NCBI RefSeq assembly: GCF_964355755.1
Contig: NC_092674.1
Coordinates: 25,358,001-25,422,000, forward strand
Source: Antedon mediterranea
Taxonomy: Eukaryota; Animalia; Echinodermata
Reading direction: 5' to 3'
Length of the DNA: 64,000 nucleotides
The position numbers and the translations under genes are program-made. The notes under the pieces are model-generated. The model did not search any database and had not been told where the DNA came from. It saw nothing but the letters and a program-made list of their open reading frames with translations. Positions 3,232 through 51,500 of this stretch are shown here, in pieces; position 1 is the first letter of the stretch; each line of letters starts with the position of its first letter.

Positions 3232-4218
3232 TTAGCGCTATCTGCCATTCATTTTAATACTGCACGCCTTTATATTGGGACCGGTAGTGATATTTATTTC
3301 CGTACACAAGTCCTCCTCATGAAACATCACAAAATAAACATGAATATTCATTAGTCATATCCATATCCAAGGTGTGATGTAAGAATTGAGCTAACTACAA
3401 TTCGCTAATGCGAACAATGCTTTCTGTTGAGCCGTCTGTTTTTGTCGAATCGATTAGACAAATCCCATGAGCAACTTATTTTTACTTTATGGTGATAATA
3501 GTGAGAGAGATTATTTAGAGGGTTAGGTTTTAGTTATATTTAGGAAGTAGTTCGGCTATCTTTCACATAAGTGGTCCCCAACTTATGTACGAAAAAAAAA
3601 TCGCGACCCCGTAATTCAACTGTGTTTCACGTACAGTAAGCCTTATGCGAAATTTTGTAACTAGACTGGAGAGATTTGAATGAAACCTAGCCACAATGAC
3701 CCTAACTCATGATTTTGTTTTCACGAAACAGTATGCTAAGACAGTACCGAAACCATCAGTAAAATCAAGCATTTCGAGAAGAAACGTAACTGATGTTTCC
3801 CATGAAGATGAGAGTGTTTGGCCATTTTCAACGAATGGAAACATGTCGTCGAATTCTTCCATATTCCCGTACAACGGTTGTAGCAGTGAAAGACGGTATC
3901 AAGGTATATGCATGTACATACAACTGATTTCAAAAAAAGTAAAACGCAATGGCTGATGTAAAACGGAATTTGAATCATAATATAAACTTGTTGTATATAT
4001 AGCATGATAATTTAAATTTTCCAGATCAACCTAACGTTTTAAGCAATACTGGGTTTATCGCCTGTAATGTTATCTTGTAATCGTTACAAACAGTATCAAA
4101 GACCTAGTCCAGGATTCGCTGTAGCACCACGTCTGCGTCTGCCAAAGAAACCAGTACCACAACCTAAAGGAGCCAGGTCAATGCCTGGCTCTTCAATTAT
4201 TCGTTATAACAGACAGCG

Positions 4219-4609
4219 TGTTAACAGGTGTACAGGATAAGTCAGGCAGATAACAACAATCACGATGCTCAGTAAAATCTGTCAAAGTATCTTTATTCTT
4301 TTCTCTTTCTTTCTTTAATTTGAGTATGGTCGAGGATTGAGAGGTTTCGAAACTTCTGAACCTTCCTAGTACACTTGAAATCTTCCTTTATCTATTAACA
4401 ATATTATCTTAAAGTATATGTCTAGTTTCCCTATGAAACTATACTTTAAACTACACTTTGGATGTTTAGTTCCCCTATAGAACTACGAAACCATCTTTGC
4501 ACATGGTTTTTTGCCATCATCCTCCGATCATGTCGAAGGTTATCGCTAGAGGGCTAATCTAAAATAATTATCTAGCGCCCTCATCTATATGTATCTTATG
4601 AACTTTACA
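4219..4609 (-). repeat. 3' LTR
   Basis: Direct repeat of 10137-10527; AATAAA on the - strand at 4292-4297. Confidence 0.97.
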
Positions 4610-4620
4610 CCGGCCCTCCT
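4610..4620 (-). other. Polypurine tract
   Basis: AGGAGGGCCGG on the - strand immediately before the 3' LTR. Confidence 0.8.
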
Positions 4621-4766
4621 AATGCGAATAACATAAAATGAGCATTAGCAAACTGCAAAACAATTAGTAATCTTAATAATTAGTCTCGTTTAAAAATTTG
4701 TATCATCGTTAACTAAATAGCGTAAGATTTACTTGTTATTAGTTAACTATATTATGACATAAATAA

Positions 4767-7700
4767 TTATGGAGAATCTGCTTCTAACAACACCACCAAC
4801 TTAGTAATTGGTCTCTTCAGTTCAGATGTGCTTGTCTTGAGCTTCACTGCTCTAACATAACCTTTGTCATCAGGGTATACCTCCACCACTCTGCCCATTG
4901 GCCATTGTCCTCTTGGTGAGTTGTTGTCGCATATCAACACGATTTCTCCTACATTCACATTTTTTCTCTGGTGAAACCATCTCTGTCGTTCCTGAAGTGT
5001 TACCAAATATTCCTTGGACCAACGTCTCCAGAAGAGATTTGTTAAATACTGAATTTGTCTCCATCCCTTTACTAGTTCCTTTCTTTCGAACACGCCTGGT
5101 TCCATTGATGTTTGCTTGTTTCCCACAAGAAAGTGGTTAGGTGTTAACGGATCTTTATCTAATGGACTGTCTGATATAATCGTCAACGGTCTGCTATTGA
5201 CAATTCCTTCAACTTCACAAAATACTGTTGGAAGTCCTTCGACATCTAGCTCCATTGGTTGCTCCTTCAGAACACTATATAAGACCTTCCGAACAGAACG
5301 AATCATTCTCTCCCATGTGCCACCGTAGTGTGAAGCGGAAGGCGGATTAAATTTCCAGTCTATATTTTGTCGAAGCACATTACTTTGGATTTCCCTTGGG
5401 TCGAGCTCCTTAATTGCCTTTTTCAGCTCATTCTTGGCACCAATGAGGTTTGTTCCATTGTCTGACATTATCATGCGTATTGGGCCTCTCCTTGCGGTAA
5501 AACGTCGAAGAGCATTGAGGCAACTAGTGGTCGTCAATGAGTGAGATACTTCCAAGTGAATTGCTCTAGTTTTCAAACAGGTAAATATTACTCCATATCT
5601 CTTATGTATAGTTCTTCCCCTTTTTATATCGAAGGGTCCAAAGTAATCCATTCCAGTATGTGAGAATGGGTTTTCGCCAACAGTTACTCTACAACTCGGC
5701 AGGTCGGCCATTTTCTGGTTTTCCGCTCTTCTGTGGTACCTTCTACATAGTACGCATTTGCTGATTAATTTCCTGGTAGCAGAGACCACTTGAGGTATCC
5801 AGTATTTTTTCCTCAGGTGCGTTATGATTTGGTTTCTGCCACAATGGCCAAGATTTCTGTGCATCTCTCGTATTATTAACTGGGAAACATGAGAGTTCTT
5901 AGGCAGGATCATTTGGTGTTTAGACGAACCCAACTCTGCTCTTCTCAAGCGACCTCCTACCTTTAGGACGCCATTTTCCAAAAATGGATCAAGTTTTACT
6001 AATGGACTTGATTTCTTGATTTGATTACCAGCTTCCAATGATTTAATCTCTTCTATGTATCTCCTTCTTTGAACATTTCTTACGAGAGACACTTCAGCTG
6101 CCTTTAGTTCGGATACCGTCAGATATTTTCTGTCTACATCCTTCTTGCGAAGAACCTGTTTTAACTTTATCATCCAGGCGGTGGCTCTACGTAGGCGACT
6201 CCAAGATGAATAGTGTTTCGCCAAGGTTTCTAATGTATCAGCATAAGGCAAGACTGGGCATGCAACCTTCTTGACTTCAGGATCATCTATCTTCAAATTA
6301 TGGCTACCTTGAATTTGTTGAGGCCACTGGTTTGTTTCCTGCCAGAGGAATTCCGGCCCTCGTAACCACATTTTCTCATTTTCGATTTTTCCTAGTTTCA
6401 GTCCTCTTGAGGCGATGTCAGCAGGGTTATCTTTAGTACCAACATGTCTCCATTGACTCGTAGTAGATCCTTCTTGTATGACATTTAGTCGATTAGCAAC
6501 AAAGGTACTGAATCTTGTACTCACATTGTTAATATAGTTGATCACCAACATGCTATCAGTCCAGAAAAGGATATCGTCAAAGTTGTAATCTATTTCAGAT
6601 TGGATTAAGCTTGCACTCTTAACCGCCAATGTCGCTGCTGTAAGCTCAAGTCGTGGTATTGTCATTCGCTTGAGTGGTGAAACTCTTGAACGGCTATACA
6701 GATTGTTGCAGGTAATGGCTCCATCTACTACACATCGTACGTAGGCGACTATTCCGTAGCCCCTTTCACTAGCGTCTGCGAACATATGGAGTTGACATGG
6801 TCTCTTTGCACAATTCAAGTTAACGCATCTTGGTATCTTGATGTTAGAAATAAGTTTTAATTCTTCCAACCAGGTCTGCCAGCGTTGTTTTATTTCCCCG
6901 TCAATGGGTTCATCCCAGCCTTTGTTATCTCGCATTACTTCTTGAAGTAATATCTTCGCCGGTAGGATAACTGGTGCTATTAAGCCCATTGGGTCAAAAA
7001 CAGAACTTATTGTAGATAAGATTCCTCTCCTTGTGACAGCTTGCTCTCTGGTTGGAGCTTCGAAATATAAATAATCTTCTTCTGGATGCCATTTAATGCC
7101 TAATGCTCTTTCACATGGTATGGTTTCTTCATGTAGATTAATTGACTGAAGTTCCTTTGACCGTTCAGATTCTGGTATAGTGTTTATTACTTTCTTTGAA
7201 TTGCTGGTCCATTTTGTCAAACGAAATCCTCCATCTTGGCATAGTATTCTCAGCTGCTTAATAAGTTCCACTCCTGTCTCCGGATTCTCAACACTCTTTA
7301 ACAGATCATCTACGTAGAAGTTACGTAACAATGTTTTCTTGGTGTTTTCTTGGATTTCTGAAATAGAGCAGTCGGCTGCTGTCTGTTGTAGTGCCTTATT
7401 TGCACATGAGGGTGACGAGGTTGATCCGAATAGGTGCACGGTCATTCTATATTCTACGGGAGTAGCGTAAATGTTTCCATTTGGGAACCATAGAAATCTG
7501 AGGAAGTTTCTATCACTTTCCGGTACTTTGACTTGGTGGAACATCTTTTCCACGTCAGCAATTATGGCAACTTCTTCTTCCCTGAAACGGAGTAGCACCC
7601 CCAATAGGTTGCTAGTCAGGTTTGGTCCGGGTAACAAAACATCATTAAGAGCTACTCCCTGATATCTTGCTCCACAGTCGAAAACCACTCTTAACTTCCC

Positions 7701-10121
7701 AGGTTTCTGGGGATTGTAAACGCCATGGTGAGGGATATACCATTTGTGTCCATCTTGTATAATTTCGTCAGGTGGTACTCTCTCTGCATATCCCTTGGTT
7801 AGCAATTCATCCATGTAGTTGATGTATTCCATTGCATATGGTTTATCTGCTTTCAGACGACGACATAATGACTCTAGTCGTTTGACTGCTTGTAGTCTGT
7901 TGTCAGGCATGACCACTTCATTGCGTCTAAAGGGAAGGCTAATTGTAAAGTGATTGTCGGGTCCCTTCACTATGCTTTCGTTTACTTTCCTGAGGAATAA
8001 TTTATCTTCAACAGAATGGTTTTGTGTAAGATCCAAACCACTTTCTGGGAAGTCAATCTCGGTGCTCCTTTTTACTAACTTCTCCAACGTGTCGTAAGTA
8101 GACTTTTCTACATTTCTTCCAACGAAGTTTGCTGGGTATGGGTGACTACTTTCGTGGTTACCAATCAAGTTCCAAACGATCCACCCCAGGTTAGTTCTGG
8201 TTGCATGGGGAGCGTCGATAGGTCCTGTTTTTACTTCCAGAGGTGTATAAGCACTTGCTACACCCATGCCTATCAGTAGACCCACTTCTTTACCCTTATC
8301 TATCTGGGGTATTTGTACGCCTTGTAAATGTGGCCACTTGTCGATGTCCGATTGTTTAGGAAAGTGTGCCTTCTGAATAGGTAAGTTGCTCTTAGTATAT
8401 GCAGTGTGTATAACAGTTTCCATATTTCTGTTGTCTAGGGAAGTTACCTTTAGTCCCTTTACCGCCTTTGTTGTTAATCGGTACGTAGACCCCATCGTGT
8501 CAATGGTGATACATTCATTCCTTCCACCAACGCCAAGTTGTTTTACGAGTGCCTCTGAGCAAAACGAAATGGTGCTCCCTGGATCTAGAAAGGCGTATGT
8601 TTCTACTTGGTGTGAGCATCCAACGCTTACGCGAACTGGGATCACTGCCAAGGCACATTCTCCTTGATTTATCTTGGCACACGCAGCTTGCAGTTGGTTA
8701 GGCTGCTTATCGTTATTCTTGTTTGTCGTTTCAGTGTTGACAACTGGGTCTTGGTGGAGCGTGGTTGGGTGCCTCCTCTTACATTTGGTGCACGTGTGGC
8801 GACTGTTGCAATGTTTAGCCAAGTGACCAGTAGTTAAGCAGCCGTAGCATAATCTGTGTTCTTTAATGTAGGTTAGTTTCTCTGGTCTTTGCAGGTTGTC
8901 GAATTTCCTGCATTCTTCTATTCTGTGTGCGCCTTTACTGCAGTAAAGACAGTCTCTTTGCACTTCGACTGCAGCATAAGCTCCCTTTGGTCTATGTGGT
9001 GGTTTGCGCTGAGATACTTTTTCGTCTTTAATGTTCCCAAACGTAGGATTACTAAGAATCCTGGACTGTTTTTCTACGAATAGTACAAAGTCGTCAAATT
9101 GTACCCTTCTGGTTTCTTGAATAAGGTCTGTTTTGGTCCTCCATTTGTCTCTCATGCGGTAAGGCAGTTTCAACGTGAGGGTCTGTATGCTACTTGTATG
9201 ATTTAATTCTTGTAAATGATCGAGACTGGACATGGAGTTCTTACATTCGATAAGTAGTAATGAGTATCTGGACAAAGAATCTTTATCCTCTGCCTTTATC
9301 TCAGGAAAGTCCTTTAATGATGTAATATAGGCATCCGCCAATCTGAATGGATTACCGTATTTATCTATTAGCGCCTGCTTCGCTTGTCTAAAGCCTTCTC
9401 CAGGATCCATAGCTAAATAGCTCTTGACCAGATTATTCACCTCACCAGTTGTATATTGTTCTAAGTAGTACAGTTTGTCTCTCTCGCTGCGAACCTTGCC
9501 TTCCACCTCGTGCTCAAAGGCTCTCTTAAATCGTCCATAATCCATTGGGTTGCCGTCGAATTTTGTAAGTCCCCTTTTAGGTAGACTTGTTTGTATCAAC
9601 CATTGGGACAGTACTTCTCCCTGTTTTTCAATCAAATTCTGTAGTAGTATATTATTGGTCTGTTCAACGGCTGGAGTAGGTGTAATCGGGTAAGGTGCAG
9701 AGCTTATTTCGGGTTTAGGTGTAACTGTGGTCTAATCTGTAGTTGGGTTTGCCCTTGGAAACCATGATGTTGCATTAGGTGATAATGTAGGTGGTACTGG
9801 TTCTAAGACAGGCTGTACCGCTTCGTTTTCGTCTAATGAGTCAAGGTATTGACTAACCTTATCGACCGCATCAGTATTTGGTACCTGAGGTGTATCCTCA
9901 GCCGTAATGGACAATCGTTCTAGCTCTTTGTCCAAGGCATCTGAGCGGGCTTGTGCTACGGCTAATTTACCCTCTTCTTCTATTTGTTCAAGTTCTAATC
10001 TTTTCTGTAAGGTCTTCTTATTATATTGAGCTCTCGCCTTAGCAACCGCCAATTCAGCTCTTGCTTCTGCTGCTGATATCTCTAATTGGCTACTTCTAGT
10101 CGAACTCTGTGTGCTTGACAT
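4767..10121 (-). CDS. BEL/Pao Gag-Pol polyprotein (~1784 codons) interrupted by one in-frame TAG at 9732-9734
   Basis: ATG (MSSTQ) at 10121; the two ORF-track ORFs share a frame with open sequence between them. Gag FDGNP motif; triple Cys-His box (CLYC..H..C, CYGC..H..C, CTKC..H..H); protease FLDPGS; RT YVDD; RNase H FADAS/IPRLEL/WTDS/NPAD; integrase HHCC and DYFGP/SDNG/WER. PR-RT-RH-IN order. Confidence 0.95.
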
Positions 10122-10125
10122 TGTC

Positions 10126-10136
10126 AAGTTTCGAAA
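10126..10136 (-). promoter_or_regulatory. Non-tRNA primer-binding site candidate (TTTCGAAACTT), complementary to LTR 10263-10273
   Basis: Directly abuts the 5' LTR end, has no TGG, and is a perfect 11-nt inverted repeat of a sequence upstream of the LTR poly(A) signal. Confidence 0.65.
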
Positions 10137-10527
10137 TGTTAACAGGTGTACAGGATAAGTCAGGCAGATAACAACAATCATGATGCTCAGTAAAATCTGT
10201 CAAAGTATCTTTATTCTTTTCTCTTTCTTTCTTTAATTTGAGTATGGTCGAGGATTGAGAGGTTTCGAAACTTCTGAACCTTCCTAGTACACTTGAAATC
10301 TTCCTTTATCTATTAACAATATTATCTTAAAGTATATGTCTAGTTTCCCTATGAAACTATACTTTAAACTACACTTTGGATGTTTAGTTCCCCTATAGAA
10401 CTACGAAACCATCTTTGCACATGGTTTTTTGCCATCATCCTCCGATCATGTCGAAGGTTATCGCTAGAGGGCTAATCTAAAATAATTATCTAGCGCCCTC
10501 ATCTATATGTATCTTATGAACTTTACA
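10137..10527 (-). repeat. 5' LTR
   Basis: Direct repeat of 4219-4609; upstream of gag on the - strand. Confidence 0.97.
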
Positions 10528-10532
10528 CAGCG

Positions 10533-11148
10533 TTTTTATTATATATATCTATTTTAAAATCACAAACTATATTTAATGTAAAAATAATACTATATGGTCC
10601 TATTGCGATAACTTTTTTCGTCTTTAAACGGTTAAAAATGTGAAAAATAAATCGATTCTAATAATTATAGAGGTCCGCTATAAATCCCAAAATGCATTGC
10701 GCGCGGATTGATATTTTTGTTTTTCACCTGTAATTCGCCCACTTTTCGATCGATCGTGAAGCCAAAACAAATGGAAGACTCCTAACTTTTCAGCGAAAAT
10801 ACCGGGTTTTCCCCAATTTGTATCAACGGAGTCTAGCAAAAATAGAAAGACAATTAATGCAGCAACTATACAACGTCAGGCTAGGTATATAGCTAGCGTA
10901 CGATGTTCGTACGTTATCGATGTTTACCAGCTAGGCCTACAAAACTAAGCCTAGCTAGGCTAGGCCTAAGACCGTCCACGAGAGGTCGATCGCCGCGAGC
11001 TACTTAGGTAGTGCATTGTTTCTCACTTTTTATCATAATTTACCATAAAACGTACATTTAAGACAAGGAATGACATGGTTTAATGTTTTTAAAGTGATAT
11101 ATATGTATTATTTTCCAAAAAACGTCCAAAATTGCAGGGAAGGGGTCT
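10533..11148. mobile_element. Kolobok-like MITE, left terminus deleted
   Basis: Same sequence as 50297-50922; ends GGGAAGGGGTCT-TTAA. Confidence 0.85.
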
Positions 11149-13134: not shown

Positions 13135-16100
13135 TTATCTTGTGCACACAACGCATGATAACTCGTGGTTATCAACATATGGCGGACATTTGAGTGACCC
13201 ACATTTTCCGACGGCAGGATAGATTACAAAGCCATTTTTATCCATTTTTGAATTATCCCTACTTTGAGGAGAGCCGTCGACGCAAAGGTATTCATGGGTG
13301 GCCTTGTGATGAGTACAACCACCCATTAATAAACCTTCGTACTCCTTGGTCCAGCCTTCAGGGCATGTACGTTTAGCTGGGATCATTATACTTGCTGATC
13401 GACCTTTTGCTAGACACACTGCGCAAGCTGGATCCGTGTCATGTACGTCATTCCACTGAGGGTATTGATCGGACGCCGTTTGGTACTCAGCACCATACAC
13501 TTCAGCCCTATGAGAGCCGTTCGCCACCATTCGCTCGTCGTATTCAGGTTTCTCGGGTAAACACAGTGGGTTTGTACCAGCTCCAGTTTGCATAAAGTGC
13601 CCTCCTCCAAGATACCCTAAACATTATTATTCAAAACAGTAAAACAATAAACGTGGTAATCATAATGTAAGGTGTAACAAAATTGTCGGTGCCCAAATCC
13701 GACGCAACCATACAATTCCGGCCTAGAAATAGAATCTGCTTTTCATGTTGTAGTTGAGTATTTTTAACAAGCCGACACTTGTTATTACTTGATAATAGAG
13801 ACTTTACAAAACACGACGGGAAGCCACAGGACGGTGCGATCATGAATAATTTATGCATGAGCTTTAACAAAGTAGGCGGAGCTTAGTGTGAAATTCCGTC
13901 GTCTTAACTTTTTGAGGACGATAAAGTTGCCATTTTCCCGTTTACGGAGAACGAATTGAACAAATATACATATAACCTTAAATATACAGTTCAAATTACA
14001 CTTAAACGTTGAAAAAATATTTGAACTTAAAATTTAATTGTTTAACGAAATAACATTTTTATTGGGTTAAAATGGCTGTGTTAAAAGCAATACATTCTGC
14101 GAGGCGTTTGAATTCGATGCTCCTAGCTAGGAAGGCCTATGCTGTTCCACCAGAGCTAAGCGATTCAGAAGGGCCCACGCCGCAAGACACGGGAGGGGGA
14201 GAGGGATACTGTCGGTCATCGTCTTCGCGCAAGGGCTCGTAACTAATAAAACGGCTATGTTGACTGTATATGATTTTGCGCTCTAGCGAACACAAGATAT
14301 ATTCATCGTCCTCCCCTAACCGTCGTTAGTTAAAAGTCCTTTAAAGTGAGGTGGACGACCCAAGGTGAAATGCGCTGGTGACGTTCGGGAAGTTTAAAGG
14401 CAAGGAGAGAGGGAGGGGCGATGAAACCGAAAATAAGTATAAAGTGTAAATAAAAATAATGTTCAAAACAACATTTTATCACAAGTTTTATGTAAATTCA
14501 TAAATTACATTTTGTTCAACTTTTTATATATTCTGTACACATATAGGCCTAGTACTATGGGTTTGAATGGTGGATCTTATGAATAATAAAGCTGTTTGTG
14601 ATTTTAAAATTAATAATATTGATTTATTTTCACTTACCAACGTATACGATTTCTGAAGAATTTGGGGTGCAGTCCTTCCGACCCCAATGAGTATACTCAG
14701 CATAATTGTTAAAGTTAGTTGTAAAAGCTGTAAATATTAAATTACATTATATTTATGACAGATATTCCTTCATATCATTACTCTTAAAGATATTATTGTC
14801 CCCTTCAAAAAATAATTCTTAACAAAATGTTTGTTGAATGTCCCATTTTAATGCAACATAATAGTTATCCACTTTGACCAAAAATTTGATCGGGAAAAAA
14901 ATGCATTTACTTGAAAAAAAAACTGGTTTAAAGCAAAATTTTTTTTCTATTTGTTTTCTACTTATTTTAATTAATCTTAATTTTTCATGTTTTTGGGGAC
15001 AATACATCTTTAGGGATGTAATTGTGAAATAGAAATATAACTGTAAATTTGTTACCAAATGTAATGCGAAATTTGACCAACCACAATCTCGCCCCCACCC
15101 CCCAACCCAGTGTGAGAAAAACTAAACAGCTATTACGAGTTAGATGTGAACATCCACTCTGGGAAGAAGACATTCCTTGGATGTACCGTAACGTCGATAT
15201 TGAAGAACTCTTCTTCTTTCAGGGCTCAAATCTTAGTTACTTTAAACGCATTGGAACGATATAGAGTCATATGTTATCCCATCAGATCCTACACAATACA
15301 CTCTAGGGTAAGAGTTGAAAGACAGAATTTTTGCTGGATGGGGGAACTTGGTGGCCCCCAGCCTCCAGATCTGCTTCTGTAATAATTTACCTCCGCCAAG
15401 GAGGTATATGTAATCGATCGCGTGTGTTTGTTACTTGGCAAAAAAGAATTTTGCCAAGTATAGTATTTACTTTGTTTGTGTGTATGTTTGTTTGTTACTT
15501 GGCAAAAAGAATTTTGCCAAGTATAGTATTTTTTTGGTGTAGATAGGTAGCCTATATATTTCAGACCATTCGACCAGTCGACTGGCAGGGGCACCGCAAA
15601 TCGGCACAGCTTCAAGACACTCCTCGACCATTATTCTGGTCAATCTTGATTTTAAAAAGGTCATTTTTTGCAATGGCGGGATTGTTTATATTAAAAAATT
15701 ATTTAAACAAAATTATTAACCCCAGCAGGATTTTAACATGTAAAGCTAATACATAAAGCAAAAAAATGTATCTTTCAACATGCTCCCAATCAGTGGATAT
15801 ATTTTGCCAAGTACTTCACTCCGTTTCTGAGTGCTTTCATTTGTTTGTTTGCACGGTAGCGCCTACAGTATTCAAGTTATCGTTCTGGATTTTTGGGTGT
15901 AGATAGGTATATACTTTCAGACCATGCCTAATGAAAATCAATAAAATTGGTTTATCAATAACTTCACAAATAACAAAAATGATATTATTTTCAGACCGGC
16001 TAGAAGTGTTAAAAGATAGGAGACCATTTTCAAAATCCGGTAAGAAGTCTTAAAGTAATACGTAAAATAAAATTACATTTTCTCGAGAACTACTTGTCCA

Positions 16101-49775: not shown

Positions 49776-51500
49776 ATGACCCTAACTCATGATTTTGTTT
49801 TCACGAAACAGTATGCTAAGACAGTACCGAAACCATCAGTAAAATCAAGCATTTCGAGAAGAAACGTAACTGATGTTTCCCATGAAGATGAGAGTGTTTG
49901 GCCATTTTCAACGAATGGAAACATGTCGAAGAAATTTTTCCATATTCCCGTACAACGGTTGTAGCAGTGAAAGACGGTATCAAGGTATATGCATGTACAT
50001 ACAACTGATTTCGAAAAAAGTAAAACGCAATGGCTGATGTAAATCGGAATTTGAATCATAATATAAACTTGTTGTATATATAGCATGATAATTTAAATTT
50101 TCCAGATCAAGGTTATCGCCTGTAATGTTATCTGGTAATCGTTACAAACAGTATCAAAGACCTAGTCCAGGATTCGCTGTAGCACCACGTCTGCGTCTGC
50201 CAAAGAAACCAGTACCACAACCTAAAGGAGCCAGGTCAATGCCTGGCTCTTCAATTATTCGTTATAACAGACAGCGAGGTGGTCACCCACAGTTAAAGCC
50301 CCATTCCCTACGTTTTTTAGATCTATTTTAAGATCACAAACTATATTTAATGTAAAAATAATACTATATGGTCCTATTGCGATAACTTTTTTCGTCTTTA
50401 AACGGTTAAAAATGTGAAAAATAAATCGATTCTAATAATTATAGAGGCCCGCTATAAATCCCAAAATGCATTGCGCGCGGATTGATATTTTTGTTTTTCA
50501 CCTGTAATTCGCCCACTTTTCGATCGATCGTGAAGCCAAAACAAATGGAAGACTCCTAACTTTTCAGCGAAAATACCGGGTTTTCCCTAATTTGTATCAA
50601 CGGAGTCAGGCAAAAATAGAAAGACAATTAATGCAGCAACTATACAACGTCAGGCTAGGTATATAGCTAGCGTACGATGTTCGTACGTTATCGATGTTTA
50701 CCAGCTAGGCCTACAAAACTAAGCCTAGCTAGGCTAGGCCTAAGACCGTCCACGAGAGGTCGATCGCCGCGAGCTACTTAGGTAGTGCATTGTTTCTCAC
50801 TTTTTATCATAATTTACCATAAAACGTAAATTTAAGACAAGGAATGACATGGTTTAATGTTTTTAAAGTGATATATATGTATTATTTTCCAAAAAACGTC
50901 CAAAATTGCAGGGAAGGGGTCTTTAAGGTGAGTTTCAGTACAAGCATGTACCTTTAACTGTCATGAAACACGTATAGAACGCCGTTACTTCCTTCTTCGG
51001 CTCTTTTACCATTACGTTCGGCACTTTCACCATTTCATACGGCTCTGGTAAAAGAGCCGTATAAAATGATGAAAGAGCCAAATGGTAAAGGGCCGAATGG
51101 TAAACGAGCCGAATAAGGCAGTAACGGCGTTCCATAGACACGTCTGAGACTGCAGATGACCAATAAGCATAAACACAATGTCTAAAATAAAATCATTGGT
51201 CGTCGAAAAAACAATAAAAATGCATAATTACAACCTGTTTAGTTACCATAGGCATAATATTAAAAGGATGCTGATCAGTATTATCTTTATTTAAACAGCC
51301 GGTCACTGCCAACTCCAACAATCACGACGCCCAGGTCACATTGTAGAACTAGTACAAACTCTTCTGATGCCTTCCAAGAAGGCAGGCTTCAAAGTCGATT
51401 ACCCGCTCGGCGCGAAAGACTTTTGTCAGCAAGGGAACCCCACAACGAAGGTCCAAGGATAGTATATACTTTTGGAAATATGCAAGTGTATGAAGACTGA
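49776..51500 (+). pseudogene. Gene A copy 4, inactivated
   Basis: +1 frameshift at ~49930 leading to TAG at 49962-49964; 22-bp deletion at ~50110; MITE at the exon 2 end. Confidence 0.75.
50297..50922. mobile_element. Kolobok-like MITE (TTAA TSD, AG...CT termini)
   Basis: TTAA-AGCCCCATTCCCT ... AGGGAAGGGGTCT-TTAA; single TTAA in units 2 and 3. Confidence 0.85.

Follow-up and report, generated by a model that had tools for sequence, protein, structure and literature searches.

According to the accessible parts of the original reports, the primer of reverse transcription in Tf1 consists of the first 11 bases of its own mRNA, freed by an RNase H cut (PMC7175516), and this self-priming needs a structure of three duplexes termed the pretzel (PMC10085805). 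Self-priming has also been proposed for Tj1 (PMC4600332) and predicted for the plant elements Tcn1 and TAR (Ty1/copia), the rule applied in the latter case being at least 10 complementary nucleotides that start 0-5 nt past the LTR (PMC6317226). The BEL/Pao elements are described otherwise: the ICTV profile of the Belpaoviridae gives them an 18-nt primer-binding site (PBS) that pairs with the 3' end of either tRNA-Arg or tRNA-Gly, and calls their replication poorly understood (PMC8742986). A search of the open literature by title and start of abstract returned no report of a self- or splice-primed BEL/Pao element. Term searches of the available text found no mention of a PBS, a primer or a tRNA in PMC3118150, PMC6238403 and PMC8556966, and no discussion of the PBS in the BEL/Pao papers PMC554778 and PMC8220671; the available portions of PMC3601003 and PMC12451622 likewise contain nothing on self- or splice-primed BEL/Pao elements.

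The window studied here (the whole 64,000-nt stretch of Antedon mediterranea DNA) contains a full-length LTR retrotransposon of 6309 bp (4219..10527), which is read, with all its features, on the reverse strand. Its LTRs, both of 391 bp and of an intron-less form, lie at 10137..10527 (5' LTR, TGT...ACA) and 4219..4609 (3' LTR) and differ from each other at one position. The target site duplication (TSD) CGCTG flanks the element on both sides (10528..10532 and 4214-4218) and a polypurine tract (PPT) stands ahead of the 3' LTR (4610..4620). The start of gag (9732..10121) is closed by an in-frame stop at 9734-9732, which appears, by comparison with other copies of the family, to be peculiar to this copy; the remainder of gag-pol (4767..9731) spans 1654 amino acids. 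The Pfam domains come in the order DUF1759, RVT_1 (under the curated cut-off), Peptidase_A17 (E = 2.6e-49), Integrase_H2C2 (the integrase zinc finger) and DUF5641, reverse transcriptase (RT) thus preceding integrase. On this domain content and order of its Gag-Pol, the element is filed as BEL/Pao (Belpaoviridae), and the named proteins among its top matches (34-39% identity) belong to nemerteans, molluscs, a priapulid, hemichordates, amphioxus, an echinoderm and fish. It resembles Tas, Bel, Pao, Sinbad and Suzu in these domains, in its PPT and 5-bp TSD and in the size of its LTRs and genome, which fall within the BEL/Pao ranges (0.2-1.2 kb and 4.2-10 kb, respectively); Sinbad, for instance, measures 6287 bp with 386-bp LTRs in the accessible part of its description (PMC554778). 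In contrast to the Tf1/sushi group, which are Ty3/gypsy chromoviruses, it has a Pao peptidase and DUF1759, and no Pfam match to a chromodomain. The element is a young jumping gene.

The host region (1-64000) is a tandem array with units of ~12-19 kb, many blocks of which are 95-100% alike. The element occupies one unit, and the empty site is seen in three others. Past the TSD, about 35 nt of the flank (10528-10575) are missing relative to the empty site near 50277, which points to a small deletion adjoining the insertion. The repeated unit also holds a cysteine-rich frame of 162 amino acids (13135-13623) with no Pfam match, which we take to resemble the domains labelled "short-chain collagen C4-like" in marine invertebrates. 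No second copy of the family and no LTR intron were found within the 64-kb window.

Directly after the 5' LTR, where a TGG would be expected to pair with a tRNA, the element carries the putative PBS TTTCGAAACTT (10126..10136). It begins at 10136 with no gap after the terminal CA and is followed by GACA and by the ATG at 10121. These 11 nt are the exact complement of LTR positions 10273-10263, the predicted self-primer AAGTTTCGAAA (10263..10273 in the 5' LTR, with a second copy at 4355-4345), and the duplex is exactly 11 bp long, the next pairs being G-G and C-A. TTCAG immediately precedes AAGTTTCGAAA, TAGATAAA lies at 10312, 39 nt upstream of the motif, and AATAAA, a predicted polyadenylation signal, lies 48 nt downstream of it (10210..10215). 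The preliminary description had given all of these letters and positions, together with the lack of a TGG, and they are confirmed. The start codon, together with the final 3 nt of the PBS, is predicted to lie in a 6-bp hairpin (10114..10128). No tRNA genes were found in the 64-kb window, and there were no Rfam matches over 4000-11000.

Among 5000 dinucleotide-shuffled LTRs, six give a match of at least 11 nt at offsets 0-5, and 10 nt of the window PBS find a match by chance in the LTR of L083, which is unrelated. The palindromic core of the PBS, already noted as a caveat in the preliminary description, is real, and because of it the window element constitutes, by itself, evidence of no more than moderate weight; the case rests on the relatives. 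Its PBS is also atypical in starting with TT, whereas 37 of 39 PBSs start with G or A. It reads (10136-10126) as the type found in L037 and L075 minus one TTTCG unit, although these two are not neighbours of the window element on the RT tree; the loss of one such unit may explain both the TT start and the zero spacer, a coincidence being possible as well.

Relatives were collected with an alignment of 37 proteins as query. This gave 79 loci from metagenome contigs (from the best 80 of 501 confirmed) and a further 10 loci (L080-L089) from genome bins, for a total of 89 loci in 68 families; no relatives were found among viral contigs. The bins that contain L080-L089 are bacterial, and these BEL/Pao contigs are most likely contamination from a host animal. 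Within this sample of the best 80 of 501 plus the bin loci, 38 of the 68 families present the signature, that is, the complement of their own PBS within their own LTR: 25 across a splice junction (L083 with one mismatch) and 13 contiguously. Four more families are consistent but incomplete (L002, L064, L017, L034), and another four have a PBS of the same type while the LTR motif is absent from the contig (L010, L038, L040, L082). Little or no LTR is contained in the contigs of five families (L012 and L056, judged by eye; L051, L071 and L072, by length only), and ten have no sequence upstream of gag. The remaining seven (L026, L039, L047, L062, L070, L084, L087) do have upstream sequence, show no such match and are unexplained. 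L039 (471-6713) and L070 (569-6597) are sisters with long BEL/Pao frames in which no LTR or PPT was recognised by eye, and they are possibly decayed or domesticated; L084 has a perfect inverted duplication of 196 nt upstream of gag (6300-6950).

The specificity of the match was evaluated in a controlled comparison of 12 elements (the window element and 11 relatives) in which the LTR's 3' terminus was fixed independently, by the divergence of its two copies. Matches had to start 0-5 nt past the LTR end and could be contiguous or bridge a canonical GT-AG pair anywhere within the LTR. Paired with their own LTRs, the PBSs gave 8, 11, 11, 11, 11, 12, 12, 14, 14, 14, 15 and 15 nt, that is, at least 11 nt in 11 of 12 cases; none of the 132 swapped pairs reached 11 nt and four reached 10 nt, two of these being between the related L037 and L075. 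For junction-spanning matches, 9 of the 11 relatives attain at least 11 nt with their own LTR, against a maximum of 7 nt in the swaps (n = 132). In the other 27 of the 39 elements (38 relatives and the window element) the PBS was placed with the match in view, and their counts are descriptive only; position-free matches of 11 nt do occur by chance (L025, L026, L074).

With that reservation, the 39 elements have 32 distinct PBS 10-mers, 37 of the elements pair at 10 of 10 positions, with no G-U pair, and none has a TGG near the start of the duplex. Among 14 hand-picked pairs of neighbours on the RT tree, 12 differ in their PBS and the LTRs change correspondingly, except for the mismatch in L083; in one further copy (L055), the PBS has changed without its partner in the LTR. 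The co-variation between PBS and LTR motif that the preliminary description had proposed to look for in related elements thus holds, and its reading that the element primes with its own LTR RNA, without a tRNA, is supported by this co-variation and by the lack of TGG. Self-priming in the window element and its relatives is likely on these sequence comparisons. The PBS for tRNA-Arg or tRNA-Gly of the ICTV profile is absent from the window element and from beside the duplex in the 38 relatives, a departure from the Belpaoviridae as described. In our judgement such a PBS is a described trait of the family and not a criterion of membership.

In 25 of the 38 families a GT-AG intron within the LTR interrupts the PBS complement, so that only splicing makes it whole, which distinguishes these families from the Tf1/sushi elements. 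The same PBS rule was used here as in the plant TAR and Tcn1 study, but those elements belong to other superfamilies and the available text mentions no splice junction in the primer (PMC6317226). The introns measure 76-488 nt (in the 21 families where this is measurable), with donors of the GTAAGT, GTATGT and GTGAGT types and YAG acceptors. The upstream exon contributes ~4-10 paired nt and the downstream exon 4-11, and the matches are 10-15 nt long in the spliced form as opposed to 2-11 nt (median 7) in the unspliced one. The junctions of L021, L074 and L058 come from relaxed splice-site filters, L021 and L074 having been missed by the strict one. The contig of L020 holds both forms, one LTR copy lacking exactly the 117-nt GTAAGT..TAG intron. 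It shows the precise removal of this intron, and the source of the contig may be RNA or an intron-lost DNA copy.

The distribution of the intron was mapped on an RT tree (FastTree, 69 sequences, midpoint-rooted, without named reference elements). Eleven of the 13 contiguous relatives form one clade (L003, L004, L005, L013, L014, L019, L028, L035, L041, L059 and L063; support 0.74), while L008, L031 and the window element are placed separately. This intron-less clade, as reconstructed, shows that splicing is dispensable in places. Its members have long leaders, with 212-563 nt between duplex and start codon versus 4-195 nt in the other 28 elements, and some of them have a donor-like site within the leader.

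The window element itself groups with the intron-bearing L080, L077 and L007 (support 0.79). Copies of its own family were recovered as contigs from four runs (X1, X5, X6 and X7) of three organisms and aligned to 9400-10700. They locate an insert of ~410 nt at 10265..10266, within the motif, where it would split the primer as 8+3 or 7+4. Record 9 of X5 takes in 10137-10271 and, past the 410 nt that separate the two exon sides, 10266-10371; contigs of X1 coming from either side terminate at 10266, and record 16 of X6 and record 27 of X7 stop there and run on. Record 26 of X7 passes the site, and the uninterrupted form may exist there too. These contigs make it likely that the family has an LTR intron, and that neither LTR of the window copy has retained it. 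Since the window copy lacks it, the intron had escaped the preliminary description. A nested mobile insertion would be the alternative for this family only and, with the insert being read only from contig breakpoints, it deserves mention; we nonetheless think it unlikely. The split AAGATTCG|TAAAT of L077 is in the same register as AAGTTTCG|AAA in the window (8+3), six other families have introns of a size comparable to the ~410 nt (351-488 nt), the one-base G overlap at 10266 fits GT...AG ends, and the same break is met with in the runs of three organisms.

Taken together, these comparisons suggest that a piece of 9-15 nt of the element's own LTR RNA probably primes reverse transcription through the PBS, and that host splicing assembles this piece in the intron-bearing copies. 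Pol II would begin transcription within the 5' LTR, either at the motif or upstream of it, the spliceosome would take out the LTR intron and the exon-exon junction would pair with the PBS. The element's RNase H would then cut on the immediate 3' side of the duplex, in the manner described for Tf1, and RT would copy U5 and R back to the cut before jumping to the R region at the 3' end. In 30 of the 39 elements, the predicted cut is followed by a C. New LTRs would inherit the intron because the 3' copy is, as proposed, left unspliced; this unspliced copy would pair poorly with the PBS and might thereby escape cutting, a feature that the intron-less clade suggests is dispensable. The PBS would be made anew whenever the retained primer is copied, and the match would stay exact as a result. 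Were the 3' copy also spliced, both new LTRs would be intron-less and the primer ready-made, so that splicing at both ends would explain the window copy as well as the whole intron-less clade. We lean, with less assurance, towards the broader proposal that a widespread branch of animal BEL/Pao elements makes its RT primer with the host spliceosome in this way, the intron being removed from the 5' LTR and kept in the 3' LTR, and removal from both giving rise to intron-less lineages like that of the window copy.

Other scenarios may account for the match. One is a variant nearer to Tf1, the model of the preliminary description with TTCAG as a possible initiator, in which transcription starts at the motif and the primer is formed by the capped first ~11 nt of the RNA, with a first exon of 4-10 nt; it is compatible with splicing and may be entertained as a tentative possibility. 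Several features fit a start at this point. The duplex length peaks at 11 nt (19 of 39 elements) and its ends are sharp, GG plus a purine occurs within 10 nt upstream of the motif in 22 of 39 elements versus 2-3 further up, position -2 is an A in 28 of 39 and, more weakly, 28 of 39 have a pyrimidine-purine step at one of the first two paired bases (background 7-24). The combination of GG plus purine with A at -2 could be a start-site, a splicing or a cleavage signal. In predicted folds of the window leader, moreover, the duplex forms only if the RNA starts at 10274 (five starts tried), with pair probabilities of 0.6-0.98; these fall to 0.11-0.18 with 10 more nucleotides and to 0 with at least 40 more, and in the longer leaders the primer duplex faces competition from a segment at 10282..10292 with predicted pairing to U5 (10155-10146). 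Against such a start, it requires a micro first exon of 4-10 nt in 25 families, a TATA-like box at -35..-22 is found in 0 of 39 elements (several lie at -46..-73), and the spliced L020 copy extends 83 nt upstream of the junction, although this assembly may be chimeric or DNA.

Nor was a pretzel found. For the own flanking stems of the Tf1 type, a rank in the best tenth of the swaps is reached by no more than 4 of 34 and 6 of 34 cases (mean ranks 0.47 and 0.51; 0.52 and 0.64 in the window element). Since they score no better than swapped controls, these stems are discarded as a common feature, in agreement with the caveat of the preliminary description that no Tf1-like R-U5 stem is seen. The likeness to Tf1, Tf2 and Tj1 of the Tf1/sushi group consists in the lack of a tRNA site and in ~11 nt beside the LTR that are complementary to the own 5' LTR. 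The three-duplex pretzel is a point of difference, and a 5'-terminal position of the primer would be hypothetical here.

The self-primer may also act in trans, provided by short spliced transcripts of solo or 3' LTRs and not by the same genomic RNA. The same sequences would serve and the competing folds in cis would be avoided, but the PBS and the LTR motif are matched family by family, which is simplest in cis, and a cut would still be required to make the 3' end; we consider this origin improbable. A regulatory duplex, acting in translation, packaging or as a splice sensor while something else primes, is more doubtful still. It draws on the position of the window start codon, 4 nt past the duplex and inside the hairpin, and on priming being itself deduced from sequence. 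However, the duplex lies 0-5 nt from the LTR end as against 4-563 nt from the start codon, and is thus placed, as far as its position indicates, like a primer site and not like a translation control; no tRNA site stands beside it, and strict Watson-Crick pairing without G-U would be unusual for a purely structural stem. Priming by a host tRNA half or another small RNA, with an incidental LTR match, has a precedent in the half-tRNA priming known in copia lineages from the accessible text of PMC6317226, but it is very improbable given that the 32 different PBS 10-mers are nearly all matched by their own LTR and that swapped pairs never attain 11 nt.

The favoured reading is that of a primer derived in cis from the LTR and, in intron-bearing copies, completed by splicing. 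Judged by its sequences, the system would work like Tf1 self-priming without belonging to the Tf1/sushi group, and would add a splice-assembled primer. An annotation rule is gained for elements that would be overlooked by PBS finders based on tRNAs, and what CAGE, long-read RNA and cDNA-end sequencing should show is precisely predicted by the splice-built primer model. If the model is true, self-priming reaches a third superfamily of LTR retrotransposons, and the stated rule of tRNA-Arg or tRNA-Gly use in BEL/Pao elements would have to be corrected. The making of a primer by splicing would be a way found in no paper of the searched literature. The replication of these elements would then be tied to the splicing of their host, and the two copies of a single intron would differ in fate within one RNA.
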